A stretch of 64,000 bases of DNA. It comes from Armatimonadia bacterium. GTDB lineage: Bacteria > Armatimonadota > Zipacnadia > Zipacnadales > UBA11051. The position numbers and the translations under genes were made by a program. This document shows, one piece after another, positions 2,538 to 58,880 of this stretch. The notes beneath the pieces are model-generated. The model made no database searches, was not told the origin of the DNA, and worked only from the letters and a program-made list of their open reading frames with translations. Positions within the stretch are counted from its first letter, which is position 1, and every line of letters starts with the position of its first letter. The stretch is taken from positions 1,966-65,965 of the forward strand of contig JBDKRC010000027.1 in NCBI GenBank assembly GCA_039683575.1. Direction: 5' to 3'.

Positions 2538-3814
2538 ACAGACTCCTCAACGGAATGCCGTTCCCGGCGGACCTGCGCGCCCAAAGCACACAGTTTGTTC
2601 TCGAAATTCTCGTAACCGCGGTCGAGAAGTTCGGCTCCAGCCACCTCGGTACGTCCTTCGGCGGCCAGTCCGGCCAGCACGAGGGCTGATCCCGCGCGGA
2701 GGTCGGTTGCGACGACGGGCGCGCCGTACAGCTTCTCGACACCCTTGATGATGGCCACGCGGTCCTTGACCTGGATGTCGGCGCCCATGCGGGCCAGTTC
2801 GTCGGTGTAGTTAAAGCGCATGTCGAAGATGGTCTCTTCGATGACGCTGGTCCCGACGGCGATAGTTGCGACGACAGCCATGTTGGGCTGGAGGTCGGTG
2901 GGGAAGCCGGGATACGGGCTTGTAGAGATTTCGACTGCTCGGGGACGCGTGTGGTTCCGCAAGCGAATCATATCGGGATGCCGCTCGATCTGCGCGCCGG
3001 CCTTGGCCAGCTCGGGCAGGACGACGTCCATGTGCTCGGCGCAGATGTTGGTGACGGTGATATCACCCTTGGTGACCATGCCCGCGACGAGGAAAGTACC
3101 GGTCTCCATGCGGTCCGGAATGGCCTGCCCCTCGGCGGGATGCAACTCCGGTACGCCATTGATGACCACGCGGGAGGTGCCGTGGCCCTGAATGTCAGCG
3201 CCACAGGCGCGGAGGAAGTCTTCACAGCAGACGACTTCGGGCTCGCGCGAGGCGTTCTCGATGATGGTGGTGCCCTCGGCCAGCGTGGCCAGTAGCATCA
3301 CATTGACCGTGGCGCCGACGCTGCGGGTGCGGTTGTCGAGGTAGACGGTATTGCCCTGGAGCTTGCCTGCCTGGGCGTACATAACGCCGTGCCGGTCCAC
3401 GACACTGGCCCCGAGGGCCTCGAAGCCCTTGATGTGCTGGTCCACGGGCCGCTGGCCGATGATGCAGCCACCCGGAAGCGGGACCTGGGCCTCGCCGAAG
3501 CGGGCGAGAAGGGGCCCGGCGACATAGAACGAGGCGCGCATGGCGCGGACGAGATCGTAGGGCGGGGCGACTGAGGTGATGTGGGAGGCGTCGATGCTGA
3601 GGCGGCCTGGGCCGAGCCAGTCACATTTGGCTCCGAGAGCCCTCAGCATTTTGATCATGGTGCCGACGTCACGAATCTGCGGCACATTGTTGATGATCGT
3701 CTGGCCAGGAACGAGGAGTGAGGCGGCGAGGAGCGGCAAGGTACCATTCTTGGAGCCGCTGATGCGAACTTCACCGTGCAGCGGCTGACTGCCGGAAATG
3801 TGGAGAGTGTCCAC
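2531..3814 (-). CDS. murA: UDP-N-acetylglucosamine 1-carboxyvinyltransferase
   Basis: ISGSKN, MRAS, LPGGCIIGQRPVDQH (active-site Cys), PGFPTDLQ and DLRAG motifs. Start moved to GTG at 3814 (VDTLHISG) behind an AGAGG RBS; the ORF-track extension to 4045 looks non-coding. Confidence 0.95.
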   Translation of the reverse strand: MDTLHISGSQPLHGEVRISGSKNGTLPLLAASLLVPGQTIINNVPQIRDVGTMIKMLRALGAKCDWLGPGRLSIDASHITSVAPPYDLVRAMRASFYVAGPLLARFGEAQVPLPGGCIIGQRPVDQHIKGFEALGASVVDRHGVMYAQAGKLQGNTVYLDNRTRSVGATVNVMLLATLAEGTTIIENASREPEVVCCEDFLRACGADIQGHGTSRVVINGVPELHPAEGQAIPDRMETGTFLVAGMVTKGDITVTNICAEHMDVVLPELAKAGAQIERHPDMIRLRNHTRPRAVEISTSPYPGFPTDLQPNMAVVATIAVGTSVIEETIFDMRFNYTDELARMGADIQVKDRVAIIKGVEKLYGAPVVATDLRAGSALVLAGLAAEGRTEVAGAELLDRGYENFENKLCALGAQVRRERHSVEESVC

Positions 3815-4650: not shown

Positions 4651-4681
4651 GGCCCGGATGCGGGCGAGACGCCCGCGCTAC
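4651..4681 (-). repeat. GTAG-type REP-like hairpin in the atpD-atpC spacer
   Basis: Reverse complement GTAGCGCGGGCGTCTCGCCCGCATCCGG is nearly identical to the copy at 58877 (GTAGTGCGGACGTCTCGCCCGCATCCGG). Confidence 0.75.
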
Positions 4682-6368: not shown

Positions 6369-7232
6369 TTAGCCGCCCTGGGCGAGGGCGTCGGCGCCTG
6401 ATATTACTTCAAGAAGCTCGGTCGTGATTGCCGTCTGCCGCGCCCGGTTGAGCTCGAGGGTCAGGTTGTCGCGCAGATCCGCCGCGTTCTCGGTCGCCGC
6501 CGACATGGACGTCATGCGGGCCGCGTGCTCTGAGGCGATGGACTGCAGGAGCATGTTCACGATCTGGGCGTCTACCGTGCGCGGGAGCAGGCCGGCCAGC
6601 AGTTCCGGGGCGGGTGGCTCGAACAGGTATTCCGCTGCCGCCTCAGCCTCGTGCTCCTCGCCGACGATGGGCAGGAGCTGAAACAGCGTCGGGGGACGGC
6701 GCAGTGGCGAGACGAATTGCGTGTAGGCGATGTGAAGCTGGTCTATGCCGCCCTCGTCGAACATCCTGCGGGCCTGACGGGCGATGCGGCTGCCGTCGCG
6801 GCTCTCGTTGCCAGTCTCGGGGGTGTCCAGCTTCGCCACGACGTTCCAGCCCAGCCGGCGGGCGTAATCGGCGGCTTTGACGCCGATGGGCAGGACCTTG
6901 ACCGGGACCTTCTGGGCCTCGATAAACTGTTCGGCGGCGCGGAGAATGTTGGCGTTGTGGCTTCCGGCGAGGCCTTTGTCGCCGGCGACGACAATGAGCC
7001 CGATGTTGGCAACCGGGCGTTCCTGCAGATAAGGATGCAGGTCGGTCGGGACATTTCCGGCGAGGTTGCGCATGATCCCGCTCAGGTGCTGCAGGTACGC
7101 GCGGCTGGCCTCAACGCGCGGTTGAGTGCGCTTGAGTTTTGACGCCGCGACCATCTGCATGGCGCGGGTAATCTGCCAGATGTTGCTGACCGCCTTGATC
7201 TTTCGGCGGATCGCGCGCAGGTTCGAAGCCAT
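6369..7232 (-). CDS. atpG: ATP synthase F1 gamma subunit
   Basis: ITRAMQMVAASK, DKGLAGSHN and SEHAARMTSMSAATENA...NRARQTAITTEL motifs. Confidence 0.97.
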   Translation of the reverse strand: MASNLRAIRRKIKAVSNIWQITRAMQMVAASKLKRTQPRVEASRAYLQHLSGIMRNLAGNVPTDLHPYLQERPVANIGLIVVAGDKGLAGSHNANILRAAEQFIEAQKVPVKVLPIGVKAADYARRLGWNVVAKLDTPETGNESRDGSRIARQARRMFDEGGIDQLHIAYTQFVSPLRRPPTLFQLLPIVGEEHEAEAAAEYLFEPPAPELLAGLLPRTVDAQIVNMLLQSIASEHAARMTSMSAATENAADLRDNLTLELNRARQTAITTELLEVISGADALAQGG

Positions 7233-23291: not shown

Positions 23292-25445
23292 TCACGGCCA
23301 GAAGGCGTAGGTTGTAGTGTTTGTGAACAGGCCGTAGAGGATCCATAAGCAGCCGGTTACTACGTCGGCCAGGATCAGACCGAAAGCGCAGGCTCTGACG
23401 CCCCGCATGGCTTTCATGCCCGCGTAACGCATGACTACTGTCTTGGTGGTCCAGGCCAGGAACATTGGAAACCACATGTGGGCCATGTACCAGGTGGTGG
23501 AGAGGGCGAAGCCGGCGGGATGCAGCGGCCAGCCGATCCACCGGGTGCGCAGGAGCATCATGCCGAAGTAGACGCCGTAGCCGATGACCGTGGCCCAGAT
23601 GCGGCCCCACTGCACGCTTTGGTTAAGTGTGATCCAATTGGCGAGTTGGTTCCACGCTTCCATGCATGAGCCGGGCATCCACTTGGCCCAGTTCATCCCC
23701 AATCCCTCTTTGTACCCCAGGTAGAGCGTCAAGAAGAAGCCCAGCGCGACGGCGAAGGGTACCATGACCATGCCCGCGAGCAGCAGGCGGCGTTCGCTGC
23801 CGCCGGTTTGGCGGGCGAGGTAAAGGCCCTCAAGCTGGTGCGGGAAGGGGATGTTGCGCAGGCCGCGCGTGAAGCCCATGAAGAGCGACAGCGAGGTGAG
23901 GTTCTGCAGGCCAAGGAGGCGCGGGCCGAGGATGTTGCCCTGGGTGACCGTGGGGCCGAGGCGCTCGAGTTCGTGGGTGGGAAGGCCCATCTCAGCGCGG
24001 ATGCGACCCACGATGATGGTCATGGCGTAGTACTGGATGAAGAAGCCAAGAATGACGAGCGGCGAGAGCTTGGTGTACCAGGCGATGATACAGACGCCGA
24101 CGAAGCCGGCGAGGAAGATCAGGAAGGAGGTGCGGTAGGACAGGGCCTCGCCGGAGTCGTCCTCGGGGAGGAGGTTGGAGTCCGACTGTAGGGCGGGGGC
24201 TTGTACCCCGCCGGTGGTGGCGCCCGAGCGGCCGGGTACGAGCCCCGGCCCTACAGCGGAGGCTTCGGAGCGGCCGGCAAGCCAGGCTTCGAGGTCGGTC
24301 CTGATTCTGATCCAGACACGGCGGAAGTAGCCACGGGCCGCCCAGAGGGAGAAGCCGAGGATGGCGAGGTAGCCGCCGAAGCTCTGCTCCTTCATATAAG
24401 GAAATTCCCGAATGTTGGTGAGACCCAGCCACGCGACAAAGATCGCCTCGGCTTTCCAGAAGAGGTAGAAGAACCAGAGCGAGAGGCTGAGCTCGGTCGG
24501 GAGCAGGAGGCCGAGGCCGATGACGAAGGGGTAGAAGCAGATCCAGAAGCGGCCGACGGCGTTCCAGGGCTTGGCGATGAAGTACTTCTGGAGGTTGAAG
24601 GTCTCGCTCTGGCTGATCTTGATCGCCGCGCGTGGGATGGAGGGGTAGAACTCGTGGAAGCCATTGAGGAGGTTGATGACGACGATCAGAGCGGCGGCGG
24701 CCCAGAAGGCCCAGTGGCGGAAGGCCCGCGGGTTGGTTTGCGAGAGTTCGTAGGGAAGCTGGACGATCGGGAAGCTCATGCGCTCCTGCTCGACCCAGCG
24801 TTTACGCAGAATCACGGCCAGCCCGGCGGGAGCGGCCCAGAGGATGGTATACAGGAGCCACCAGCGCAGGACCGGGCCGAGCCACGGGCGGTAGTTGCGG
24901 GGCTCGAAGATGCTGGTGCCACCGAGCCACAGACGGTTGAGGGCGGGCTGGTCGTTGACGGTCATGGAGAGCGGAAGCTCCTCCATGAAGAGGTCTTCCC
25001 AGTGGTTGACCTCGTTGGCGAACACGGCCGGGCCCTGCATGGTGGCGAAGGTGGTCTTCATCGTGTCAATGCCCAGCGGCCCGGTGCCGAGGGACAGAAG
25101 AATGAAGAAGGCGATGAGCTCGGCGGGGGCAAAGGCGATCCTGGGGGCGAAGCGTAGCAGGGCGGCGTTGACCAGCCGAAAGAGGAACAGTAGGAAGACC
25201 ACGTTGTAGAAAAGCGCGACGACAGTGGGGTCCTCGACGCCACGGGGGCCGGTGAGGTAGGTCATGAAGTAGGCGTTGAGGGGCGCGACCAGGAAGGCGA
25301 TGATGATGACACGCCAGGATATGCCGCGGGCGAGCGGAAAGGGCTTTGCGTCGGTGCTGGGAGTGACGGCGGCAGGATTGGGGTGCGAAGGTTCGTGCAA
25401 GATCAGGGCTCCGGATGGTGTTTCTGCGGCAGATGCGTGTTTCAA
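23292..25445 (-). CDS. DUF6785/DUF6784-type polytopic membrane protein (putative transporter) carrying an in-frame REP doublet
   Basis: About 16-18 hydrophobic segments; RKRWVEQERMSFPIVQLP and WPLHPAGFAL motifs typical of this family; family named from memory. Confidence 0.7.
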   Translation of the reverse strand: MKHASAAETPSGALILHEPSHPNPAAVTPSTDAKPFPLARGISWRVIIIAFLVAPLNAYFMTYLTGPRGVEDPTVVALFYNVVFLLFLFRLVNAALLRFAPRIAFAPAELIAFFILLSLGTGPLGIDTMKTTFATMQGPAVFANEVNHWEDLFMEELPLSMTVNDQPALNRLWLGGTSIFEPRNYRPWLGPVLRWWLLYTILWAAPAGLAVILRKRWVEQERMSFPIVQLPYELSQTNPRAFRHWAFWAAAALIVVINLLNGFHEFYPSIPRAAIKISQSETFNLQKYFIAKPWNAVGRFWICFYPFVIGLGLLLPTELSLSLWFFYLFWKAEAIFVAWLGLTNIREFPYMKEQSFGGYLAILGFSLWAARGYFRRVWIRIRTDLEAWLAGRSEASAVGPGLVPGRSGATTGGVQAPALQSDSNLLPEDDSGEALSYRTSFLIFLAGFVGVCIIAWYTKLSPLVILGFFIQYYAMTIIVGRIRAEMGLPTHELERLGPTVTQGNILGPRLLGLQNLTSLSLFMGFTRGLRNIPFPHQLEGLYLARQTGGSERRLLLAGMVMVPFAVALGFFLTLYLGYKEGLGMNWAKWMPGSCMEAWNQLANWITLNQSVQWGRIWATVIGYGVYFGMMLLRTRWIGWPLHPAGFALSTTWYMAHMWFPMFLAWTTKTVVMRYAGMKAMRGVRACAFGLILADVVTGCLWILYGLFTNTTTYAFWP
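24188..24254. repeat. Intragenic inverted REP-like doublet
   Basis: GTAGGGCGGGGGCTTGTACCCCGCC (+, from 24188) and GTAGGGCCGGGGCTCGTACCCGGCC (-, from 24254), inside the 23292-25445 ORF. Confidence 0.8.
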
Positions 25446-26938: not shown

Positions 26939-27152
26939 GGGGGGATGGTTCGTCGGGGAGGGAGCGGGGACCTGCGTGGACAGCCCGACAGGAATGTCGG
27001 GCGTACACCGGAGGGGAGGCGGAGGCATGGCGGGGCACCTCTGGGGCAGGGGCGGGAGTTGGAGGCGGTGCTGGCAGAGCGGGCGGTAGACACGCGAGAG
27101 GTCGCGCTTGGGGGAGCGCTCCTACGGAATGAAAAGGCAACGCGAGCAGGCG

Positions 27153-27814: not shown

Positions 27815-29089
27815 CTACTCCATGACCTCAGAAGCGAATGTACTGCGGTAGACCTGCTTGCCCCAGTCAAGGTCTTCAGGGAAGATCACTGCGCCGCTGC
27901 CGCGTAGGTGACCTCCCTGTAGCTCAAAGTCAATGACCGCGCGGCGGAGGCTCGTGTCGCGGGGGGCGTTGGCCCAGTCGGGCTTGCTGCCGCCGAAGAG
28001 GTCGAAGATGCGCTCCCAGGTCTGCTGGTCGCGAGCACCCTCGGCTGGATGCAGATACCATTCGGCGAGGCAGGCCGCGATGTTGGGCGGGCGGGGGTCG
28101 AGGTGCTCGAACTGGGGGTCAAGCAGCCATGAGGTGCAGGTGAAGGCGCGGTACTTCAGGTCCGGGAAGTGCTTGGCGTAGAAGTCGCGGGCGTGGACGA
28201 AGGACTCGCCGCACAGGGCGTAGTCCATCGAGCCCTTGGCCGGAATGTGGACAGTGACGACCGGGTCGCCCTTGCGCAGGACCTCGCGCCATTCGGAGGT
28301 ATCGAGGGTAACGGTCCTGGGAAGGACGTGGCCGAGCGGCGAGACCGGGTTGCCGCTGATGGTCTCAACTGATTCGATCAGGCGGGATTTCCAGAGGTTG
28401 TCCCACACCTCTCCCCCATCGGCGCTCGCGAACTGGCCGTCGGGCCGGAAGAGGCAGCCGTCCTCGGCGAGAGCGATGACCCGGCCGCTGGCAGTGTGGC
28501 GGTACCAGCGGAAATTGTGGTAGTAAGAGCCGGGGAGGTACTCCAGGCGGCTGAGCTTGTGGAGATTGCCGCGGACGTGGTGCTGCAGCCAACCCATGCG
28601 CGGGAAGCGCCAGACGCCCTGGAGGCGCTTGAAGTCGAGAATCCAGGTTTCGAGGCTCGCCAGGCTCTCGATGGTGTCCTCGAGCTCAATGCCGCGCCCG
28701 GCGTGGATCGCCAGCATGTGCGGGTAAGCCGAGAGGGTCAAGAGGCCATAGAAGAGCAGCCCAGCCGGGCCCATGGCATCGGGGAACTCGGGCCATTCAC
28801 CGACCTTGGGTTCGTACCCGGAATCGCAGATGAGCCAGCGGCAGTGCCATAGCAGGCGCTCGAGGGGGAGGTTGCCGAGTGTGGCGACGGAGGCTTCGGC
28901 GAGGACGTCAGTGACGCCGGGGTCGAAGCGGAGGGTCTGGCAGGTCTGACGGACCCAGTCTTCTTTAAGATAGAAGGCCCCGGGAGTGAAGGTGCGAGCA
29001 GACTGGGGCCAGGTGGCGCGGATGATGTCGGCGCAGTTGACGCCGAAGGCAGCGCAGACGGCGATGGGATCGCGGAGGTCGGTGGTCAT
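27815..29089 (-). CDS. N-acyltransferase-like protein (DUF5596/GNAT-like C-terminal)
   Basis: LSRLEY, TVHIPAKG and FTCTSWLLDP motifs; start moved to ATG at 29089 (MTTDLRD). Confidence 0.7.
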   Translation of the reverse strand: MTTDLRDPIAVCAAFGVNCADIIRATWPQSARTFTPGAFYLKEDWVRQTCQTLRFDPGVTDVLAEASVATLGNLPLERLLWHCRWLICDSGYEPKVGEWPEFPDAMGPAGLLFYGLLTLSAYPHMLAIHAGRGIELEDTIESLASLETWILDFKRLQGVWRFPRMGWLQHHVRGNLHKLSRLEYLPGSYYHNFRWYRHTASGRVIALAEDGCLFRPDGQFASADGGEVWDNLWKSRLIESVETISGNPVSPLGHVLPRTVTLDTSEWREVLRKGDPVVTVHIPAKGSMDYALCGESFVHARDFYAKHFPDLKYRAFTCTSWLLDPQFEHLDPRPPNIAACLAEWYLHPAEGARDQQTWERIFDLFGGSKPDWANAPRDTSLRRAVIDFELQGGHLRGSGAVIFPEDLDWGKQVYRSTFASEVME

Positions 29090-29316
29090 GGTGATAGGGA
29101 CTCTACAGGATGTACAGGATAGGGACTGATGGGCAGGATACGGCAGGTCACATTCGCCGTCCTGCGGGACGCCATTCGCCATTCGGCCCATTTTGCCCTC
29201 CATGTGCTGTCGGGAAGTGGAAAAGAGGTGGCCACGGTTGAGCATGATGACGCGGAGCAGCGTCAAGTATAGGGGGATCATCCCGGGGGAGGCTCAACTG
29301 GAAGGAAGCGATCACT

Positions 29317-30522
29317 ATGTACCGTGTCCCCAGGTTATCTGCGCTACTTGCTTTGTGTTTGCTGCTGGCATTGATGCTAAGCGGCAGCGGGCCATCTGCG
29401 ACTGCACCCGTGGTGCAGGGGTCCGCGGCTGTGGCGAGCGAGACGGCGGCTGGCGGGTCCAATGCCGGTGGTCTGCTACCGGTGCTGATCGGCTTTACAA
29501 AGGCACCCGGAGCGGCCGAACAGGGCCTTGTCAGGGGAGCCTCCGGCAAGATCAAGTACACCTACCACATCATCCCCGCAATCGCCGCACGCCTGCCTGC
29601 GCAGGCGGTCGCGGCGCTGGCGCACAATCCCAGGGTGGCCTACATCGAAGAGGATCCCATCGCCATGGCGAGCGCCGACACAGTGCCGTGGGGGATTACG
29701 CGGGTCAAGGCTGACCTGCTCTGGGCAGGCAACACCGCCTCCGGCGTGAAGGTGGCGGTCATCGACACGGGCCTTGACTACCGCCACCCCGACCTGGCGC
29801 CGAACTACAAGGGCGGGTATGACTATGTCAACCGGGATACTGACCCGATGGATGACAACGGGCACGGTACCCATTGCTCAGGGACGGTGGCTGCGGCGGT
29901 AGAGGGGACGAATGTTGTGGGCGCTGGCCCCGGCATCGCCCTGTATGGGGTAAAGGTGCTCAACTGGGCCGGTTCGGGCAGCTACAGTGACATCATTGCC
30001 GCGCTCCAGTGGTGCGTGACGAATGGCATGCAGGTGGCGTCAATGAGCTTCGGCGGCAGCAAGGGCTCGACTTCCCTGCAGAACGCCTGTGCCGCCGCGT
30101 ATAGCGCCAACGTGGTGCTGGTTGCCGCGGCGGGTAACTCGGGCAAGGCTAACGGCAGGGGCAACACGGTTCAGTACCCGGCCAAGTATTCGAGTGTGAT
30201 CGCCGTCGCCGCCATCGACAGCAACAACTTCCGCGCGTCATGGTCTTCATCTGGCGCTGAGGTTGAGATCGCCGCGCCTGGGGTGAGCATCGTGTCGGAC
30301 AGGCTTGGTGGCGGACTTATCACCTACAGCGGCACGTCAATGGCGTGCCCGCATGTAGCGGGTTGCGCTGCACTGACCATTGCTTCGGGAGTTACAAAGG
30401 CAGCCACCGTGCGCAACCGACTGGACGCTACGGCACTGGACCTGGGCGCGGTGGGGCGAGACGCACTGTATGGGTATGGATTGGTGGACGCGCAGCGCGC
30501 GGTGCTGCAGGCTTCGCCGTAG
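29317..30522 (+). CDS. Secreted subtilisin (S8) serine protease with I9 propeptide
   Basis: Catalytic triad VAVIDTG / HGTHCSG / GTSMACPHVAG; signal peptide; YGYGLVDA end. Confidence 0.95.
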   Translation: MYRVPRLSALLALCLLLALMLSGSGPSATAPVVQGSAAVASETAAGGSNAGGLLPVLIGFTKAPGAAEQGLVRGASGKIKYTYHIIPAIAARLPAQAVAALAHNPRVAYIEEDPIAMASADTVPWGITRVKADLLWAGNTASGVKVAVIDTGLDYRHPDLAPNYKGGYDYVNRDTDPMDDNGHGTHCSGTVAAAVEGTNVVGAGPGIALYGVKVLNWAGSGSYSDIIAALQWCVTNGMQVASMSFGGSKGSTSLQNACAAAYSANVVLVAAAGNSGKANGRGNTVQYPAKYSSVIAVAAIDSNNFRASWSSSGAEVEIAAPGVSIVSDRLGGGLITYSGTSMACPHVAGCAALTIASGVTKAATVRNRLDATALDLGAVGRDALYGYGLVDAQRAVLQASP

Positions 30523-30555: not shown

Positions 30556-30590
30556 GCGTGCCTGTGCCGGCGTGGAGCCGGCGCAGGCAC
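30556..30590. terminator. Hairpin downstream of the subtilisin gene
   Basis: GTGCCTGTGCCGGC / GCCGGCGCAGGCAC inverted repeat. Confidence 0.45.
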
Positions 30591-30625
30591 TGTGGGCTAT
30601 AGCGGGTAAGCTAGCAAGGGGTGGC

Positions 30626-30856
30626 ATGGAGATGCGACTGTCCGACATAGAGGTGGTTAGCGCGGGGAACCATTGCGAGCTGCGCGCGCAGGTTACCTGC
30701 GATCCGACCGTTGCGGCCCACCCAAATGTCTCAGAGTGGTTCGCCGGCGGGAAGCCGTGTGAGCTATGGTATCGCTTCCCAAAGGAAATGCAGCAAAAGG
30801 CTATACGCGAGCGTTTGGCGACCGCTGAGCGCAGCCATGCGTTATCAGGCACCTAG
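30626..30856 (+). CDS. Small hypothetical ORF (76 aa), possibly a truncated gene remnant
   Basis: ATG behind AAGGGG; protein-like N-terminus (MRLSDIEVV...ELWYRFP) that degrades into a nondescript tail next to the repeat array. Confidence 0.4.
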   Translation: MEMRLSDIEVVSAGNHCELRAQVTCDPTVAAHPNVSEWFAGGKPCELWYRFPKEMQQKAIRERLATAERSHALSGT

Positions 30857-30922: not shown

Positions 30923-31004
30923 CCTCAGATATGCAACCCACCCCAAAGCCTCGGCAGCCGCTGCTCCACCGGCAGTAGCGTCACGCAGTGATCGTGCGGC
31001 TCGG
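30923..31004 (-). pseudogene. Copy C: 82-bp duplicate of the extreme 3' end of the DUF2961 gene
   Basis: Aligns with 32368-32449 with about 8 mismatches; encodes EPHDHCVTLLPVEQRLPRLWGGLHI* versus EPHCHCVELLPVEKRLPRLWGGLHI*. Confidence 0.85.
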
Positions 31005-31352
31005 CTATTGCTGCTCTCTCGGCTGGGCACTCTTCCGCCGTGCTTCGCGGCGTAGCCTCAACTCCAACAACTCGATGCCGAGGGACATCCCCAGAGGCAC
31101 GCCCCAGATTCCGCCGCTGACGGCGCCAAGCAGAAGAGCCTGATGGAATTCACGCGGAGAGAGACTACCGGGACTCGGCCCTTCGTAGACGATTGCCGGG
31201 AATAGGAACCCGACCATCACAAAGCCCACAAGCGCCCCTTTGAGCAGCGAGAGCACGTAACGTCGGCGCGGGTGCTTGAGCATGACAGATGCGACGCTCC
31301 ATGCTGCCAGGAGAGCGCTTGGAGCCAATACATTGATGTCGCCGCGTGTCAT
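31005..31352 (-). CDS. Cargo 2: small membrane hypothetical protein (115 aa, about 3 TM)
   Basis: ATG 18 nt after the stop of copy B, behind a purine-rich RBS (GAGGGGAAGAGAAAG); its stop abuts copy C. Confidence 0.7.
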   Translation of the reverse strand: MTRGDINVLAPSALLAAWSVASVMLKHPRRRYVLSLLKGALVGFVMVGFLFPAIVYEGPSPGSLSPREFHQALLLGAVSGGIWGVPLGMSLGIELLELRLRREARRKSAQPREQQ

Positions 31353-31368
31353 GGCGTCTTTCTCTTCC

Positions 31369-31662
31369 CCTCAGATATGCAACCCGCCCCACAGTCTCGG
31401 CAGCCGCTTCTCCACCGGCAGTAGCTCCACACAGTGGCAGTGCGGCTCCGTCTGGTACCAGTACGCCGTGCTGCTGTAGTCGTGGAACATGTTGTTGGCA
31501 TGGCCGTGCTCGATGGAAAAGAGCAGGCTCTCCTGGAACGGGATCGGGTCCTGAATGTGGTAGCGGTACTGGCTACGCTTGCCCGTGTAGTCGGCGTTGG
31601 TTTTGAAATGGTAGCCGTAGTACGGGGTGCAGAAGGTCTCCTTGAGGCGGTTGTAGTTCCAC
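31369..31662 (-). pseudogene. Copy B: 294-bp duplicate of the 3' end of the DUF2961 gene
   Basis: Ungapped alignment to 32368-32661 with about 15 mismatches, 12 of them synonymous (only S>F and H>R change the protein). Confidence 0.92.
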
Positions 31663-31764
31663 AACCGTCGCGAAATAAGTAGACTCACCCGAATATAGAG
31701 GTGGACAAGCCCCACCTGCTGCGTCGCCATCGATCAGAACTCCGTGCATGTGAGGTAGACTGCT

Positions 31765-32349
31765 CTATGGCGTCTCACCCAGCGCCACAATCACCTTCGC
31801 ATTCAGATCGTGCAAGTGGATGATGAACTTGAGGTACGTGCCAAGGATTATTACTAGTTGATTCCAGTGAATTTCGGAGAGGCTGCCCAGGGATATCCAT
31901 TCGTCGTATTGCTGCTTGTACCTTACATTGGCATGTGCTAGCCCGCCCCACATGAACGTGTCCAGAATCTGACCATGAGTGAGACAGGTATTCTCTGTGC
32001 GAAACGGTGACGGCGAAGCTAGATAGTCACTCAGGCATCGTTGCGTCTCAAAGAATGCCTGTCGAAGCTCCTGACGAATCAGTGCCTGGCTGTATGCTTC
32101 GGTCACCTTGTGCAAAGAACAGAGATCCGACTTATTCACGAACAACCTGAAAGTGAGTACAAACGCCTCGATAGATTCTTGGGGCGGGCCTCGCCTCTCG
32201 ACGACGGCCGGTTCGCCTACCTTGGCGTGAGTCGACCAGCCGGTGCTCTCGAACAGCACCGTCCGACTGAAACTCGTTTGCGCCAGCTTCTCAGCCTTTT
32301 CGTTGAAAAGCCTTAGGGACTGGAGTATTTGTTCTCTAGTCACTTCCAC
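31765..32349 (-). CDS. Cargo 1: lower-GC helical hypothetical protein (194 aa)
   Basis: GTG at 32349 behind a GGGGG RBS, 20 nt after the DUF2961 stop; many A/T-ending codons unlike the flanking genes. Confidence 0.75.
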   Translation of the reverse strand: MEVTREQILQSLRLFNEKAEKLAQTSFSRTVLFESTGWSTHAKVGEPAVVERRGPPQESIEAFVLTFRLFVNKSDLCSLHKVTEAYSQALIRQELRQAFFETQRCLSDYLASPSPFRTENTCLTHGQILDTFMWGGLAHANVRYKQQYDEWISLGSLSEIHWNQLVIILGTYLKFIIHLHDLNAKVIVALGETP

Positions 32350-32369
32350 GTTCCCCCTTCGGTGTCGCC

Positions 32370-33392
32370 TCAGATATGCAACCCGCCCCAAAGCCTCGGC
32401 AGCCGCTTCTCCACCGGCAATAGCTCCACGCAGTGGCAGTGCGGCTCGGTCTGGTACCAGTACGCCGTGCTGCTGTAGTCGTGGGACATGTTGTTGGCAT
32501 GGCCGTGCTCGATGGAAAAGAGCAGGCTCTCCTGGAACGGGATCGGGTCCTGGATGTGGTAGCGGTACTGGCTGTGCTTGCCTGTGTAGTCCGCGTTGGT
32601 CTTGAAGTGGTAGCCGTAATACGGGGTGCAGAAGGTCTCTTTGAGGCGGTTGTAGTTCCACGCGCCGCAGAAGTAGTCTTCGGTGCCCGTGCCGTGCAGC
32701 GACGGGGGCCACTTTTCGCCATCAATGAAGAACATGTCGTCGCCCTCACCCCACCAGCCGGGAGTCTCGGCGTCGATGTCGAGGTGGCAGCCGACGTAGT
32801 GGCCGCGGCCCTTGGCCTCGAGAATCACGTAGTTCCCCGCCCCGCCGATGTTCCTCTCCTCGGCCAGTTGCTCAGCCTCGCACCATTCGCGGCGCCACTG
32901 GGCGTGGAAGCGGCCTACGTTGTCGGGGGCGGAGGTGTACTGCTCGTAGTCAATGTAGAAGTAGTAGACGGTGTCGCTGGTGTCGCACTCGCTGGTGACT
33001 TCCACGCGGGCGCCGTTAGCGAAGGGCATGGGGAAGTAGCAGTTGAAAGCGCGGTCCCACATGGAAAGGGCGGCGGAGGAGAAGTAGGTGGTGGCGGCGT
33101 GGCCGAGGCCGAAGAAGTCCCCGACGGGGCACTCGACCGACGGGTTCTCCTCACCGTCCCAGTAGATGCGCAGTACGAGCTTGCGCAGGTAGTCACGCTC
33201 GCCGCAGGAGATTGTGGTCCAGAGATGGGTCAGGCACCCCGGGCCGGAGAGGTCGGCAAGGACACGGGTTTGGCCGGGCTCGACGACCCAATAGTCCTTG
33301 TTGCCGCCGGTCTGATCCCAGCTTGAGGAGCGCAGGGCGCGGTAGTCGCGGAGAGTGGCGAGGTCGCGGAGGGAGCTGCCGGGCATGATCAT
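32370..33392 (-). CDS. DUF2961 / GH172-family glycoside hydrolase
   Basis: RSSSWDQTGGNKD, GPGCLTHLW, CPVGDFFG, WWGEGDDMFFIDGE...HGTGTEDYF and IEHGHAN motifs. Confidence 0.9.
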   Translation of the reverse strand: MIMPGSSLRDLATLRDYRALRSSSWDQTGGNKDYWVVEPGQTRVLADLSGPGCLTHLWTTISCGERDYLRKLVLRIYWDGEENPSVECPVGDFFGLGHAATTYFSSAALSMWDRAFNCYFPMPFANGARVEVTSECDTSDTVYYFYIDYEQYTSAPDNVGRFHAQWRREWCEAEQLAEERNIGGAGNYVILEAKGRGHYVGCHLDIDAETPGWWGEGDDMFFIDGEKWPPSLHGTGTEDYFCGAWNYNRLKETFCTPYYGYHFKTNADYTGKHSQYRYHIQDPIPFQESLLFSIEHGHANNMSHDYSSTAYWYQTEPHCHCVELLPVEKRLPRLWGGLHI

Positions 33393-33423: not shown

Positions 33424-33497
33424 GTAGGAGCGCTCTGGGGAGCGCTCCTACCGGTTGGTAAGCGGACGGAAGCGGGCGGACCACGGTCCGCCCTTAC
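33424..33497. repeat. REP-like cluster
   Basis: Perfect inverted repeat GTAGGAGCGCTC/GAGCGCTCCTAC (33424-33451; half copy at 27111-27125) plus GCGGGCGGACCACGGTCCGCCCTTAC (33472-33497). Confidence 0.75.
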
Positions 33498-33521: not shown

Positions 33522-34178
33522 CTACTCTTGCTCGATGCTCAGCAGCGAGTCGGCGGTGGCGCTGTCTATCGCCGCGGGCTTGAGCCACTTGGCGTGACCG
33601 TCGCAGAAGGCGTAGTTGCAGCCGTCGTTGTGGCGCTTGAAGCTGGCCCCGGTCGGGACCCAGCCGCGCGGGTTGGTCGATTCGCAGATGTCGTCCTCGT
33701 TGCCATCACTTTCCATGAGGAAGATGATGCTGGAGGAGTCCTCGAGGGACGCGAGCCACTGGCCGGTTGGCGGGGTCGGGGCGCCTGCGTCCTGGTGGGC
33801 GTCGTTGATGGCATAGCTGGCCTCGAGGCCGTCATCATCGTAGCGCCCGTCGAACTTGGTGCCGGTGGGACGATGGCTGGGGCAGAAGAAGATCTGGGCG
33901 TTCTTGCAGTACGGCATGAGGACGCCGCGCCAACTGCCGTCGCCGGGATCGTTGCCAGTGCCCACGTAGGCGTAGTCCTCGGCTGGCAACGCCTCGTCGC
34001 AGTCCTGCGCGTAGCTGAGGGCGGCCGTCATGAGCTGCTTGATGTTCGAGAGGCAGCTTGACTGGCGGGCCTTTTCACGGGCCTTGGCGAAGACGGGAAA
34101 GAGGATGGAGGCCAGAATCGCGATAATCGCGATTACCACCAGAAGCTCGATCAGCGTGAACCCGCGCCTGCTGCGCAT
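33522..34178 (-). CDS. Prepilin-type N-terminal cleavage/methylation protein with H-X9-DG motif (DUF1559-like)
   Basis: [42 protein letters not shown]; [16 protein letters not shown]; ATG at 34178 behind AAGGAGG. Confidence 0.92.
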
Positions 34179-34248: not shown

Positions 34249-34686
34249 CTACTCCAATTCGAAGCAATACGGCTCATGCTGCTCGTCAAGGGCGAGCAAC
34301 TCCATGCACCTGGTCTTGAACTGGATGATCCCCATGTCGGGGTCGTCAGGACCGCTGTAGTACTTGTCCATCATTGGAATGCCCTTCCACAGCAGGCTGC
34401 GGAGTTCGGCCGTGTCTACGACCGTGGCGGTGCCGGAAAGAGTCGCGACTTGCCAGTCGTCTTGTTTAGAGAAGAGCATCTGGGCGTGATTGTTCGCACT
34501 AATCTGGTGCATTTTTCGCGAATCTTTGCCACAGACCAGGTAGAAAGTCCAGGGGGCCTTGGGGTCTTCATAGAGTGCGCCCATCCACCGCATCCGAGGC
34601 TTGCCTTCGGAGTCCACGGTGGCCAGGACGTGTACGTTACTGACGGCTTGCATGACGCTACGGACGCGGTCAGGAAGGTCTGCCAT
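34249..34686 (-). CDS. Pyridoxamine 5'-phosphate oxidase-like FMN-binding protein (general stress protein 26 type)
   Basis: [15 protein letters not shown]...SRKMHQI...FSGPDDP-like motifs. Confidence 0.8.
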
Positions 34687-54427: not shown

Positions 54428-55225
54428 ATGAAACTTGGTGCGAATTCGGTTCTGTTTGGCGGCTATGACATGGACACCGCCTTCAAGTACACGGCCATGG
54501 CGGGCTATGACGGTATTGAACTGTCGGCCATCGGCGGCATGAGCGAGCATCTCGTGATTGACCGCTGGCAGGAGCTCGTGCAGCCGATCAAGGACCTGGC
54601 CGAGAAGTACGGACTTGAGCTTCTGGCGATGGAGCAGCCCTCGCAGGACCGCGCGATCATGGAGCAGGCCTTCGCCGCCGCGGCGGAGATCGGCATCCCC
54701 ATCATCAACTGCGGCCCCGGCGGCAAGAGCGATGACGAGGAGACGCTGAAGGCCTCCATCGAGTCGCTCAACTCGCTCGCGGACCTGGCCGGGACCTATG
54801 GCGTGACACTGTGCGTGAAGGCCCATGTCGGCGCCTCCATCTACAACACGCCGACGACACTGAAAGCCATGGAGCAGATCACCAGCCCCCATTTCGGCAT
54901 CGACATGGACCCCTCGCACATCTGGCGCGCGGGCGAAAACCCGGTAGAAGCCATCGCCGCGGTAGTCTCCCGCGTCAAACACGTCCACATCCGCGACTGC
55001 AAGGGCCGCCAGCAAAGCCCCGGCACCCCGGAAATGCAAGCCAACGGCCGCGGCGACATAGACCTGGTAGGCTACATCCGCGTCCTGCACGAAGCCGGCT
55101 ACGATGGTCCGCTGAACCTCGAGATCATCGGCGCGAAGGAATACACGCTGGAGCAATGCTGTGTGATAGCGGCGGAGAGCCGCGGGCACATGCAGGCGTG
55201 TCTGCAGGCTTGTGGGGCGAGGTAG
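54428..55225 (+). CDS. Sugar phosphate isomerase/epimerase (xylose isomerase-like TIM barrel)
   Basis: GYDGIEL, IDMDPSH, HVHIRD, GRGDID and GPLNLE motifs; ATG at 54428. Confidence 0.85.
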   Translation: MKLGANSVLFGGYDMDTAFKYTAMAGYDGIELSAIGGMSEHLVIDRWQELVQPIKDLAEKYGLELLAMEQPSQDRAIMEQAFAAAAEIGIPIINCGPGGKSDDEETLKASIESLNSLADLAGTYGVTLCVKAHVGASIYNTPTTLKAMEQITSPHFGIDMDPSHIWRAGENPVEAIAAVVSRVKHVHIRDCKGRQQSPGTPEMQANGRGDIDLVGYIRVLHEAGYDGPLNLEIIGAKEYTLEQCCVIAAESRGHMQACLQACGAR

Positions 55226-55322
55226 GGCCGACCGCCGAAGAGGTGCATTGCTGAGCGGGCGCCGCGACGGCATGAGTGGGAAAGCCACCACGTTTGCCGT
55301 TAACTCAAGAAGGGGGAATACC

Positions 55323-57677
55323 ATGCCAGACGACGCTGAGCCGCACGTTGAGGCGAGGAGCGGCCCAGACGGGCCGGGGGACCAGCCAGCCATAGACTAT
55401 GACTGGCTGGGCTTCAGCCGTAACGTCAAGGGCTTGTGCCAACTGCTCACCGAAGTCGAGACGCCCTTTGTTCTGGGCATCTACGGCGATTGGGGTACCG
55501 GCAAGACTAGCCTGATGCGGCACCTTCAGAAGGCGCTACGGGATGCAGGACATCTCACCGTCTGGTTCAACCCATGGAAATATGACAACCGGGAGGAAGT
55601 CTGGAAGGCCTTCGTTCGGGCCGTATACACAGATGTCAGGCACCAACAGACATTCCTGAAGTTCGGCTTGCAGCACGTAAAAGATACCATAGAAGATGGT
55701 GCGCGCCAGATCGCCAACATGGTTGGAAGAATGGCGGGCGTAGGCGATACTGGCAATGAAGTGCACGACCTGCTCAATCTTGACAAACAGTTTCTCAATG
55801 CCTTCGAGGACGAGTTTGAAAGACTTCTGCGAGAGGCGCTCTGCCTGGCAAGTCAGCACAACAAGGACCACGGAAAGGAAGCCGTCGCTCCGCGCCTGAC
55901 CGTCTTCGTAGATGACCTTGATAGGTGCAGTCCTGAGGCCGTCCTTGAAGTGATCGAGGCGCTCAAGCTCTATCTCGAGGTGCCGAATTGCCTCTTCGTT
56001 CTGGGGATAAATCAGGAAGTGGTTAGCCAGGCCGTACACCAGAAATATGGATTGCCAACGATGCGAGGCGCTGATGGCGACGCGGAGACTGCCGAGGCAG
56101 TCGCCTATCCGCTGGGTCTACGGTATCTGGAGAAGATCGTTCAGCTTCCCTTCCATCTTCCGCCTACTGACGACGCCGACCTCAAGACATTCTTGTCCGA
56201 GGTGAACAGGCTGACACCACCACCGGAAGGGGTTCGCGAGGCGCAGTGGGTGGAGTACCTCACACTGGTGGCCAATGCCACCAACCGCAACCCACGCCAG
56301 ATCAAGCGCTTCGCTCTGACGTTGCGGCTTTTGAGCGGTATCGCGCCAAGCACAATCCGCGTAACCGGCTCCGCCCTGGAGACACCGTTTGACAGACTGA
56401 AGCTGGCGAAAATCGTTTTGGTACAGTTCGTGGACTACCAACTGTACAAGCTAATCCGCAATGTGCCCGAGGCGCTGCTCGATAGGCAGACAAGGGCACA
56501 AGAGCGGTTGGGAGCGACTGCTGCAGAGAGTCCGACCGCTCCGAGGGAGACCCGTCACGTCAGTCCCAAACTGGATGAGATTCTGTCGCGACGGCCACTG
56601 TTCAGCAATGCGGAGGAGGTATCCTGCTACGTAAGGCACTCCGCCGGAAGCCCCTCCGAGCGCGGCAGCCATGAAGCGCAACCGGAACTCGAGTTGGCAC
56701 TGGAGCGGTACTACAAAGTTGACAGCGTACCTTCTGACTACCTGTTGAACCTTCTAGCGGATCTTGATACCAATGCTCTGAGCGAACATGTGGAGGCACT
56801 GGCGAGGACTATGAACGAACCTGACGACCCGCGTAATTTCAAGGTTGCGCTGCTCCTCGGGTGTATCGGTCGGCGTGCGAAAGCAGGAGTGCCCTCACTC
56901 GAGCGAGCCGCCGCTATGCCGTCGTCACTAACGACAACCGCTGCCCAGGTAGCCCTGACGTTGCTGACAGACAACGACACCGCGGTGAGAGACTCCATTG
57001 CGAACTGGGCGGTTCACGACCATCCTGCTATTCGGTGGATGAGCATGTACGCGCTGGCGCGGACGCCTGCCCTCCGACAGTTGGCTGTACCCCTTGCGGC
57101 TAATGCGCTGGAAGATAGTGACGACATAGTGCGGTATCAGGCGGTAGATACACTCCGGATGATTGGCACCAAAGAGGCAGGTGTCGTCCCCGCGCTCGTG
57201 CGAGCCGTGGATGTCCCCAGCACCAGCGCTAGTTACTGGGCCCAACTTGACCTCGACTACACTCATCGGGTACTGAAGGACGACGTTCCCGAACTTGCAG
57301 CACTTCTGTCCCACGAATCAGCGCTGGTGGTTGAGTACGCTGCCAAGGCATTGGGACGGGTCGGAAGAGGAGCGGCAAGCGCCTCGCCCGGGCTGAAAGC
57401 GGTTGCCCTAACTAACGAGAGGCCTAAGACGCGGACGGCGGCAGTCAGGGCCATGGGGCTGATTGCGGAACCCGTCCCCGAGAATGTGGAGGCGCTTCTG
57501 CAGGCGGCCCACGACAGATCTGTGTCTGTCCAGGCGGCGGTTGCAGTAGCCCTGGGCCGGATTGGTGCGAAATCTGGCGCTGTGACCGACGCACTACGCC
57601 ATCTCGCTGCTGCTACGCACGCGCCCCTTGTCTCTAGGTCAGCGCAGAAAGCACTTGATCGCCTGACGCAGCTATAG
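55323..57677 (+). CDS. KAP-family P-loop NTPase fused to C-terminal HEAT repeats
   Basis: GIYGDWGTGKTS, VWFNPWKY, VFVDDLDRC, YLEKIVQLPFHLP and NPRQIKR motifs; repeated VR.AA..ALG.IG units; ATG at 55323 behind AAGGGGG. Confidence 0.9.
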   Translation: MPDDAEPHVEARSGPDGPGDQPAIDYDWLGFSRNVKGLCQLLTEVETPFVLGIYGDWGTGKTSLMRHLQKALRDAGHLTVWFNPWKYDNREEVWKAFVRAVYTDVRHQQTFLKFGLQHVKDTIEDGARQIANMVGRMAGVGDTGNEVHDLLNLDKQFLNAFEDEFERLLREALCLASQHNKDHGKEAVAPRLTVFVDDLDRCSPEAVLEVIEALKLYLEVPNCLFVLGINQEVVSQAVHQKYGLPTMRGADGDAETAEAVAYPLGLRYLEKIVQLPFHLPPTDDADLKTFLSEVNRLTPPPEGVREAQWVEYLTLVANATNRNPRQIKRFALTLRLLSGIAPSTIRVTGSALETPFDRLKLAKIVLVQFVDYQLYKLIRNVPEALLDRQTRAQERLGATAAESPTAPRETRHVSPKLDEILSRRPLFSNAEEVSCYVRHSAGSPSERGSHEAQPELELALERYYKVDSVPSDYLLNLLADLDTNALSEHVEALARTMNEPDDPRNFKVALLLGCIGRRAKAGVPSLERAAAMPSSLTTTAAQVALTLLTDNDTAVRDSIANWAVHDHPAIRWMSMYALARTPALRQLAVPLAANALEDSDDIVRYQAVDTLRMIGTKEAGVVPALVRAVDVPSTSASYWAQLDLDYTHRVLKDDVPELAALLSHESALVVEYAAKALGRVGRGAASASPGLKAVALTNERPKTRTAAVRAMGLIAEPVPENVEALLQAAHDRSVSVQAAVAVALGRIGAKSGAVTDALRHLAAATHAPLVSRSAQKALDRLTQL

Positions 57678-57743
57678 CGCTATATAGGCGGCGCGACGAC
57701 TACTGCCGTCGCGAAGCTCATGAGCACCATCGAGGAGCTAACC

Positions 57744-58880
57744 ATGCTATCCAACCTAACCACAATCCATAGCCGTCGCACCGGACGCTTCTCCTCCTGG
57801 GACACCTCGGGCCGCAATGCCGATGCCTGGACGATTGCGCCCGGGGAGACGCGTGTTCTCGCCGACATCTCCGGCCCTGCCCAGATCACCCACCTGTGGA
57901 TGACGCAGGCGAACCACTATCGCGAGTGCCTGCTGAAGATCACATGGGACAATGCCGCCTATCCCAGCGTGGTCGCGCCGCTCGGGGACTTCTTTGGCCT
58001 GGGGCATGGGCTGGTTAGCTCGTACCAGTCGGCGCTCTTCACGGCCTCGACGGCCAGGCCGAATCAGTTCAACCAGGGCTGCGCGCTGAACTGCTATGCG
58101 CCGATGCCCTTTCGCGAGCGGTGCGTGGTGGAGCTTATGAACGAAAGCGACCAGCCGCACCGGCAGTACTTCTATGTGGACTATGAGACGCTGGAGGAGG
58201 TGCCGGAGGACGCGGGGTACTTCCACGCGGAGTTCCGGCGCGCGAACCCCTTCGGCGGCTGGGGGCATGAGATTACCGTCAATACCCCGCTGGCCAACGC
58301 GGTCAATGTCGAGCGGCAGGCGTGGGCGAGCAACTATGTCATCATGGAGAGTCGCGGGCGGGGGCATTACCTCGGGTGCAACCTGTCGGTGACGAACTTC
58401 CAGGGCACCTGGTGGGGCGAGGGGGATGACATGATCTGGGTGGACGGGTACAAGTGGCCGCCGGACCTGCACGGGACGGGTAGCGAGGACTATCTCAACC
58501 AGGCGTGGGGGATGCAGGACAACGCGTTCATGCGCAACGGTTCTTCGATCTTCGAGGGCAACACGAAGGGCTATCAGACGAGCTATGTCTTCCATCTGGA
58601 AAACCCGGTGCGCTTCCAGAAGGAGATCAAGGTAACCATCGAGCACGGGCATGCCAACCATCTCGCCAACGAGATGAGCAGCGTGGGCTACTGGTACCTC
58701 GACAAGCCGGGGAAGGTAGCCGAACCGCCGCCGGTGGCGCAGAGATTGCCGGTGCTGCGCGACAACCAGGGCCACTGGCTGCACGACCCAGAGCGGCAGT
58801 GCCCCGGCAAGCCGGTGAAGCTCACTGACGAGATGCGGCAGAATAAGAAAGAATGGAAGCGTCGCGCCAATCCCGCGTAG
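57744..58880 (+). CDS. Second DUF2961 / GH172-family protein
   Basis: RFSSWDTSGRNAD, APLGDFFG, WWGEGDDMIWVDG...HGTGSEDY and IEHGHAN motifs; ATG at 57744 behind GAGGAG. Confidence 0.9.
   Translation: MLSNLTTIHSRRTGRFSSWDTSGRNADAWTIAPGETRVLADISGPAQITHLWMTQANHYRECLLKITWDNAAYPSVVAPLGDFFGLGHGLVSSYQSALFTASTARPNQFNQGCALNCYAPMPFRERCVVELMNESDQPHRQYFYVDYETLEEVPEDAGYFHAEFRRANPFGGWGHEITVNTPLANAVNVERQAWASNYVIMESRGRGHYLGCNLSVTNFQGTWWGEGDDMIWVDGYKWPPDLHGTGSEDYLNQAWGMQDNAFMRNGSSIFEGNTKGYQTSYVFHLENPVRFQKEIKVTIEHGHANHLANEMSSVGYWYLDKPGKVAEPPPVAQRLPVLRDNQGHWLHDPERQCPGKPVKLTDEMRQNKKEWKRRANPA

Follow-up and report, generated by a model that had tools for sequence, protein, structure and literature searches.

Stacked gene ends and variable downstream genes behind a GH172 glycoside hydrolase gene in an Armatimonadia genome

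Hotspots of gene gain that carry no mobile-element genes are common in bacterial pangenomes, and the route by which new genes enter them has mostly been inferred. The question of how such entry proceeds is raised by a 64-kb stretch of DNA from an uncultured Armatimonadia bacterium (GenBank assembly GCA_039683575.1, contig JBDKRC010000027.1; hereafter the window), in which an intact glycoside hydrolase gene of the GH172/DUF2961 family is followed by two small genes, cargo 1 and cargo 2, each of which is in turn followed by a further copy of the 3' end of the hydrolase gene. With about even confidence, we favour the view that the stretch 3' of the GH172 gene is a strain-variable insertion hotspot resulting from sequential displacement of the gene's 3' end, by recombination anchored in GH172 homology.

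Copies of the GH172 gene end and their contexts

The anchor of the array is a GH172/DUF2961 gene of 340 aa (32370-33392, minus strand), which is intact and matches Pfam DUF2961 with E = 1.7e-88. As a look-up of the exact protein returned no record, its context was drawn from relatives: it is the 100% cluster representative P0001 of a cluster whose members are named Armatimonadia GH172, and annotation places the members of its 90% cluster among the proteins of Armatimonadia metagenome-assembled genomes (MAGs). A repeat search, together with BLASTN of the GH172 gene against the whole window, locates its 3' end three times, always co-oriented on the minus strand. Copy A (32365/32368-32661) is the 3'-terminal 294 bp of the intact gene itself, reaching to 2 nt past the stop codon. 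Copy B (31366-31662) comprises 297 nt, i.e. 294 bp plus stop, with 94.6% identity to A (E = 8e-133), and copy C (30923-31004) comprises 82 nt with 90.2% identity (E = 6e-27). There is no fourth copy in the 64 kb, only a distant GH172 paralogue (57720-58880, 386 aa, about 69% nucleotide identity). Aligned in register, all three copies retain ...CTGCCGAGNCTNTGGGGNGGGTTGCATATCTGAGG, run to TGAGG and diverge directly afterwards. A first-pass annotation of the same DNA had already reported three copies in direct orientation, and repeat search, BLASTN and alignment bear out its description in all details that were checked.

Each of the two proximal copies leads into a different gene. Cargo 1 (31765-32346 or 32340, minus strand), an orphan of 191-193 aa with a GTG start at 32346 or 32340, follows copy A, its start being preceded by AAGGGGGAAC; its G + C content is 0.52 compared to 0.64 for the window. 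Cargo 2 (31005-31352, minus strand), a predicted membrane protein of 115 aa with an ATG start preceded by GAGGGGAAGAG, follows copy B, and its stop codon adjoins copy C.

Between A and B there are 15 mismatches in 292 nt, 12 of which are synonymous single-nucleotide codon changes. The C-terminus of the protein is nearly invariant, as only two residues are replaced between the two copies (H to R through CAC to CGT, and S to F through TCC to TTC), and the Nei-Gojobori estimates are dS = 0.27, dN = 0.009 and dN/dS = 0.03. The reading frame of B is intact, lies within the open reading frame (ORF) 31371-31730 (P0130) and matches Pfam DUF2961 with E = 2e-16. Because of the low dN/dS, B looks like a functional allele rather than a decayed fresh duplicate, which bears out the earlier suggestion that it had once been functional. 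Of the 80 nt compared, C departs from A at 8, amounting to three amino-acid changes in 27 codons (covering 6 nt) and two synonymous changes. C, the oldest displaced 3' end, thus has mostly non-synonymous changes and is decaying.

The arrangement of GH172 gene, cargo and displaced 3' fragment recurs in four independent assemblies of close relatives, with different cargo in each. In L175 (GCA_039679245.1), GH172 is followed by a 269-aa gene, a 257-bp fragment and the ancestral flank; in L174 (GCA_039698095.1) by a gene for a 152-aa membrane protein, an 89-bp fragment, a cupin gene and the flank; and in L167 (Logan SRR19071532) by a gene for a membrane protein of about 120 aa, a 145-bp fragment, a homologue of cargo 2, a 47-bp fragment and a NAT/GNAT gene. 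In L171 (Logan SRR27460530), where GH172 itself lies off the contig, a gene for a 154-aa membrane protein, a 26-nt motif treated below and a 294-bp fragment precede NAT/GNAT. The flanks of these relatives are 92-96% identical to the window at the nucleotide level, except for the NAT/GNAT flank of L171 (about 76%). Neither cargo nor fragment is present in L163, where hairpins resembling repetitive extragenic palindromic (REP) sequences and the NAT/GNAT gene directly follow GH172, and in L161 and L162 a 422-aa gene stands between GH172 and NAT/GNAT, in L161 without a fragment. Strong cargo turnover behind a recurring WGGLHI end, for which the first-pass annotation had suggested looking in relatives, was found, and the state that it had named as refuting, a fixed single-copy end with invariant downstream genes, was not seen.

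Across window and relatives the fragments measure 294, 257, 145, 89, 82 and 47 bp, so that their start points vary. The 145-bp fragment of L167 contains an in-frame stop and a frameshift, and the 89-bp fragment of L174 is degenerate. What lies beyond the fragments is shared between strains: C and the 257-bp fragment of L175 have orthologous right flanks leading into a convergent 390-aa gene; B and the 145-bp fragment of L167 are both followed by cargo 2 or its homologue (73% nucleotide identity, in the equivalent position 3' of the GH172 fragment); and NAT/GNAT is what follows both the fragment of L171 and the more distal one of L167. Each fragment is thus contiguous with its older downstream context, and cargo 2 is the older downstream neighbour that has stayed attached to B. 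Repeat layout and relatives' contexts together support an array of stacked layers, each made up of a GH172 3' end and a downstream gene with the older ends displaced distally, much as had been proposed from the letters of the window. Since the fragments stay joined to their older contexts, the order of events in the window can be read: a GH172 gene with the ancestral flank would have received a 3' end with cargo 2, leaving C, and later a 3' end with cargo 1, leaving B.

This A-to-C stacking order is read from one assembled contig, in which an exact run of 67 nt is common to A and B. A run of that length suffices for a de Bruijn path switch at small k, and the source is a metagenome-assembled contig, so that the array might be a co-assembly chimera of strain variants, one layer per strain, chained through the shared repeat. 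We consider this very improbable. The fragment junctions must be real because they join the middle of a gene to unique DNA, which graph switching cannot do; the fragment architectures recur in Logan, ENA and JGI data and in two other NCBI MAG assemblies; and L167 alone holds a fragment, the cargo-2 homologue and a second fragment on one contig.

With respect to the GH172 gene itself, close-strain alleles (window compared to L167, L174 and L175) alternate within 1 kb between blocks of 84-89% and blocks of 96-100% identity. This indicates that the gene is a mosaic generated by recombination between strains, with frequent intragenic homologous recombination. In all three comparisons the last 200 nt or so are less similar to the window gene (89-93%) than the mid-gene peak (95-98%), as would be expected if the tail travels together with the cargo. 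Copying of the 3' end is not a general trait of the GH172 family: in 160 loci of GTDB genomes and JGI metagenomes, all with an amino-acid identity of 64% or less, no gene is followed by a copy of its own 3' end.

Full-length GH172 allele pairs have dN/dS values of 0.03-0.05, and the comparison of B with the L171 fragment (0.05) falls within that range. Furthermore, six intact fragment ORFs of 105 aa, all formed by one junction and coming from different assemblies (P0130, P0124, P0127, P0133, P0192 and P0194), encode a short basic leader, MS[LP][LR]ISRRL, joined to WNYNRL...GGLHI. It could be argued from this conservation that the 294-bp fragment and its leader are a selected product, namely a separate GH172 C-terminus whose translation is coupled to that of the upstream cargo, the more so as the start codon overlaps the upstream stop (ATGA in L171, GTGA in the locus L168 discussed below). 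We hold this to be improbable. The six ORFs belong to three different 90% clusters and each is nearest to a full-length allele and not to another fragment, so that they form no clade of their own, as gene conversion predicts; the other fragments, namely the 145-bp fragment of L167, C and the L174 fragment, are decaying as described; and a promoter and terminator scan gave nothing above background and no promoter-like site on the coding (minus) strand. Since each intact fragment is nearest to a full-length allele, it follows that functional alleles keep overwriting the fragments or giving rise to them anew. As B-type fragments have also kept their allele-like state, full-length genes and fragments are still exchanging sequence.

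Recombination route and the junction motif

The anatomy of the array, its recurrence, the turnover of cargo, the allele-like fragments and the mosaic anchor gene are thus matters of observation, as is the want of a recombinase in the window described below; the recombination pathway itself we infer. Under sequential displacement, DNA of a related strain would enter carrying a GH172 end and that strain's next gene, and would recombine homologously within the last 0.3 kb or so of the resident GH172 gene, its far end joining illegitimately upstream of the resident stop codon. The route could be homology-facilitated illegitimate recombination; a circularised fragment that integrates through a single Campbell-type crossover would be equivalent and recalls the earlier proposal of single-crossover insertions of a new 3' end with cargo. 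GH172 would be kept intact and acquire a new downstream gene, and the old 3' end with its downstream genes would be shifted one step distally, so that the layers of the window would run from C with the ancestral flank (oldest) through B with cargo 2 to A with cargo 1 (newest). The direct repeats would then permit RecA-type recombination, both between repeats and with the alleles of other strains, resulting in cassette swap, in overwriting of fragments by functional-allele sequence or in cassette loop-out, and deletions would trim the older fragments from the 5' side. The variable fragment starts fit such one-ended homologous/illegitimate recombination followed by deletion and would tend to speak against one fixed site-specific crossover.

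That the window encodes no recombinase, as the first-pass annotation had stated, is supported by Pfam scans of approximately 50 ORFs across it, none of which has an integrase, recombinase, transposase or reverse transcriptase domain. Likewise, no such domain occurs in the precomputed Pfam listings of the called genes of the related loci, cut-off genes at contig ends excepted. The array does resemble an integrative element in that the inserted DNA is framed by direct repeats of the target 3' end, with the target gene restored; no element-encoded integrase was found, as cargo 1 and cargo 2 match no Pfam, NCBIfam, PHROG or PADLOC model and the cargo-1 model has no recombinase-like fold.

In its superficial layout, with co-oriented promoterless small genes split by a recurring sequence and with a near-identical copy of a 3' end, the array resembles an integron cassette array or the template and variable repeats of a diversity-generating retroelement. 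Within the limits of the 64-kb window, the probability of either being true is close to negligible. There is no IntI beside the array; the ends of A, B and C fold no better than shuffled sequence on either strand (z from -0.7 to +1.3) and thus show no attC-like folding; and Rfam gave no match at E <= 1. As for a retroelement, the mismatches between A and B (C>T 5, A>G 3, T>C 2, G>A 2, others 3) are mostly transitions of all kinds and mostly synonymous instead of adenine-specific, and the window has no reverse transcriptase. The designation integron-like, which had been applied to the locus, can accordingly be kept as an analogy and has to be given up as a class. A hairpin at the joint between motif and B (CGGTTGT/ACAACCG, z = -2.2) is not conserved in L171 and is not relied on.

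Several observations weigh against displacement through illegitimate joints, foremost the motif mentioned above. Immediately upstream of B, at the junction with the preceding cargo, lies a 26-nt motif or 'leader' (31662-31687, minus strand; TGAGTCTACTTATTTCGCGACGGTTG), which as TGAGTCYRCNNATYYSRCGACGSTTG has one match in the window compared to 0.01 expected by chance and is conserved in L171 and in the loci L168-L170. In both the window and L171 it stands exactly at the junction of cargo and fragment despite different upstream genes, and a random illegitimate joint would not carry it. In L168-L170 the motif is followed, after 42 bp, by a 58-bp copy (95% identical) of an oxidoreductase-gene 3' end including its stop codon. 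In addition, about ten different sequences start 0-5 nt from the GH172 stop codon, which would be tighter than random joints, unless it simply reflects the limit of detectable homology. By self-BLAST, scars of this kind are absent from about 1.7 Mb of other loci, and the process is thus strongly localised. Finally, to our knowledge, homology-facilitated illegitimate recombination has not been demonstrated in Armatimonadota.

The junction of motif and B recurs behind different upstream genes in at least six further assemblies, among them L171 (P0133) and those of P0124, P0127, P0192 and P0194, whose contigs are represented by protein only. The B junction, which the first-pass annotation had listed among its insertion junctions, is thus not confined to this genome.

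These data might alternatively be explained if the cassettes were miniature integrative elements that a site-specific recombinase, encoded at some other place in the genome, moves in trans, in a manner comparable to cis-mobilisable elements or to the tycheposon arrays described below, with the GH172 3' end as attB, the 26-nt motif as an element end or recombinase-binding site, and the short fragments as eroded remains of a 294-bp att repeat. We regard this as unlikely, yet as the main rival. In its favour are, besides the recurring junction and the sharp localisation of the phenomenon, the presence of the motif together with a cargo-1 homologue at another target gene whose own 3' end is duplicated, and a weaker match, TGAG-N14-GACG, at the L175 junction. 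Moreover, the same cargo family can stand beside fragments of unequal length (L174 compared to L171, and L167 compared to the window), which fits erosion, and the shorter fragments could be erosion products of the 294-bp junction form. However, apart from the weak match at 257 bp, the junctions at 257, 145, 89, 82 and 47 bp lack the motif; what lies upstream of it differs (cargo 1 in the window, the 154-aa membrane protein in L171), so that no one fixed element emerges; and no recombinase was found in the 64 kb or among the precomputed Pfam hits of called genes in the related loci. The motif consensus was built from four sequences, and a search across all loci collected matched only the loci of its derivation and retrieved nothing further. 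A diverged motif copy may be present at the stop codon of cargo 1 (31740-31767, minus strand; TAGAGCAGTCTACCTCACATGCACGGAG), its weak similarity having been judged by eye against L168.

Two distinct cargo-1 homologue loci were examined as DNA, L168-L170 and L172/L173. In the former (L168 1123-2037), a 60%-identical homologue stands behind a Gfo/Idh/MocA oxidoreductase gene and the motif overlaps the homologue's stop codon. L168 also has the GTAGGAGCGCTC palindrome of the window, which suggests a related organism. L172 is an AT-rich contig in which a 358-aa membrane-anchored gene has, 645 bp beyond its end, a 65-nt copy of its own 3' end with 82% identity (2982-3691). Between the two tail copies is a 170-aa HExxH ORF, and 38 bp separate the displaced copy from the cargo-1 homologue. 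This is a similar scar in an unrelated organism. The duplicated tail belongs to the convergent neighbour in L172/L173 and to the upstream gene in L168-L170.

Such scars are neither common nor a matter of chance, since self-BLAST of 1.89 Mb gave them only at the Armatimonadia GH172 loci and in L172; the L168 scar, which falls outside the +-8-nt filter of that search, was seen in a separate comparison. The scan gave one other hit, in L007, where a REP-type repeat adjoins a Cas6-like ORF.

It is conceivable, though doubtful, that the motif, and possibly the cargo-1 family with it, marks an undescribed cassette system that docks at the 3' ends of ordinary chromosomal genes. That such a system would duplicate or carry the tail of its target, and be moved by an unknown recombinase or purely by RecA via the tail repeats, is an equally speculative proposal. 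In effect, a system of this kind would work as an integron-like platform for cassettes that has no integron integrase. The cargo-1 family, with a predicted fold that is new, consists of stand-alone, uncharacterised proteins of about 190-200 aa. A profile search assigned 1,838 clusters at 50% identity to it at E <= 1e-3 and 522 at E <= 1e-30, and the invariant residues of the family alignment include N13, G51-P52, T63, R65, S75, Y83, G132 and H136. The AlphaFold2 model of cargo 1 (pLDDT 94, pTM 0.89) gave no Foldseek match with E < 0.08 in PDB and BFVD and has no recombinase-like fold. Scans of cargo 1, cargo 2 and the relatives' cargo genes with Pfam, NCBIfam, PHROGs and PADLOC returned nothing usable and no toxin or immunity annotation, and a scan of viral contigs for cargo 1 found nothing. 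In the 269-aa cargo of L175 (1235-2044), which has no match in Pfam, NCBIfam or PADLOC, there is an R-x4-H motif (RHCLVH) that recalls those of HEPN nucleases.

Flanking genes and repeats

Beyond copy C, the right flank of the array comprises an in-frame remnant of the convergent 390-aa gene (30572-30856, plus strand), in which the N-terminal 55 aa are fused to the C-terminal 20 aa (94 aa in total), a gene for an S8 peptidase (29317-30522, plus strand) and a gene for a NAT_N/GNAT_C protein (27815-29281, minus strand), the latter two assigned by Pfam. Nucleotide identity to L174 and L175 is 95-96.5% across 27815-30522. BLASTP and locus alignments show that the 390-aa gene is intact in L175; L174 has another deletion in it, indicating decay independent of that in the window. 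The left flank comprises a REP-like palindrome (33424-33451), a DUF1559 pilin-like gene (33522-34169, minus strand) and a PNPOx gene (34249-34686, minus strand). A cut 207-aa ORF in the left flank of L167 aligns to the pilin-like gene. The order PNPOx, GH172, NAT_N/GNAT_C is retained in L161 and L163, relatives at 88-91% protein identity, and in the window everything from cargo 1 through the S8 peptidase gene sits between GH172 and NAT/GNAT.

The REP-like palindrome, GTAGGAGCGCTC...GAGCGCTCCTAC, is intergenic and found in the window at 33424-33451 and 27114-27125, in L163 at 6856-6930 and at the 3' end of L168. A second repeat family of 35 nt (GTGACGGGCGAGACGCCCGTCCTGCG...) occurs at 4657, 6319, 8806 and 8870, between and around ATP synthase genes. 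A G + C-rich hairpin sequence, also of 35 nt, lies just 3' of the GH172 stop in L161 (4627-4661); its inverted, 94%-identical counterpart in the window (24180-24214) is located inside a DUF6785 reading frame, in a part not aligning to L161, and may be a REP-like insertion within coding sequence. Directly upstream of the 386-aa GH172 paralogue, within 55212-58880 (plus strand), is a gene for an 821-aa KAP-family P-loop NTPase with HEAT repeats, which matches the PADLOC models QatA, PifA and PDC-S20 (E down to 3e-31).

Comparison with known arrays

Homology-facilitated illegitimate recombination was proposed for the C-terminal displacement arrays of rhs genes (Jackson et al. 2009, PMC2935791), and the same model for the sequential displacement of effector-immunity modules of the type VI secretion system in Vibrio cholerae (Kirchberger et al. 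2017, PMC5361080). As in the GH172 array, every displaced module is preceded there by a repeated, conserved piece of the anchor gene, and the newest module lies nearest the intact gene; a displaced piece retains the partner gene that used to follow it, and close strains have different arrays; and there is no integrase, homologous recombination later moving whole arrays. In contrast to these systems, the anchor here is a glycoside hydrolase and not a toxin, and its C-terminus is invariant, without any gain to the anchor protein. Neither a variable toxin domain at the C-terminus nor an immunity gene paired with one was found. The cargo here consists of unrelated orphans (membrane proteins, a cupin, a 193-aa protein with a new fold) without evident effector-immunity logic, and the presence of the conserved 26-nt junction motif is a further difference.

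Accretion at a gene 3' end is also a feature of the integrative and conjugative elements and cis-mobilisable elements at fda in Streptococcus thermophilus. Tandem arrays separated by partial tRNAs have been described for the tycheposons of Prochlorococcus (Hackl et al., bioRxiv 10.1101/2020.12.28.424599). With both, the GH172 locus shares that a replacement 3' end is carried and that successive integrations leave partial target copies between elements, that degenerate elements devoid of an integrase persist, and that the hotspot island holds strain-specific cargo. It differs from them in that no integrase is seen in the 64 kb and the related loci, that the modules are single genes of 0.35-1.2 kb and that fragment starts are not fixed. 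Integron arrays similarly stack small ORFs of one orientation, most of them lacking promoters, behind a single entry point, next to which the newest is found; unlike these, the GH172 array has no IntI, attI or attC structure, and its spacer is a copy of the end of a coding gene.

GH172 enzymes include difructose-dianhydride synthase/hydrolases and D-arabinofuranosidases (PMC8605356, PMC10115798), and nothing here connects the cargo to these activities. In kind, the locus is familiar, both from displacement arrays and from elements that accrete in tandem at the 3' ends of genes. What is new is the anchoring in an ordinary glycoside hydrolase gene whose protein is left unchanged, the unrelated orphan cargo, the occurrence in Armatimonadota and the motif linked to a large uncharacterised family.

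If the junction motif is a recombination site, the locus would indicate a new cassette system. In any case, the scars of gene entry are preserved here as displaced tails attached to their former neighbours, in several strains of a little-studied phylum and at a housekeeping-type enzyme gene. The order of events can be read from these scars, which suggests that displacement-type accretion is a general route of gene gain, beyond polymorphic toxin systems.

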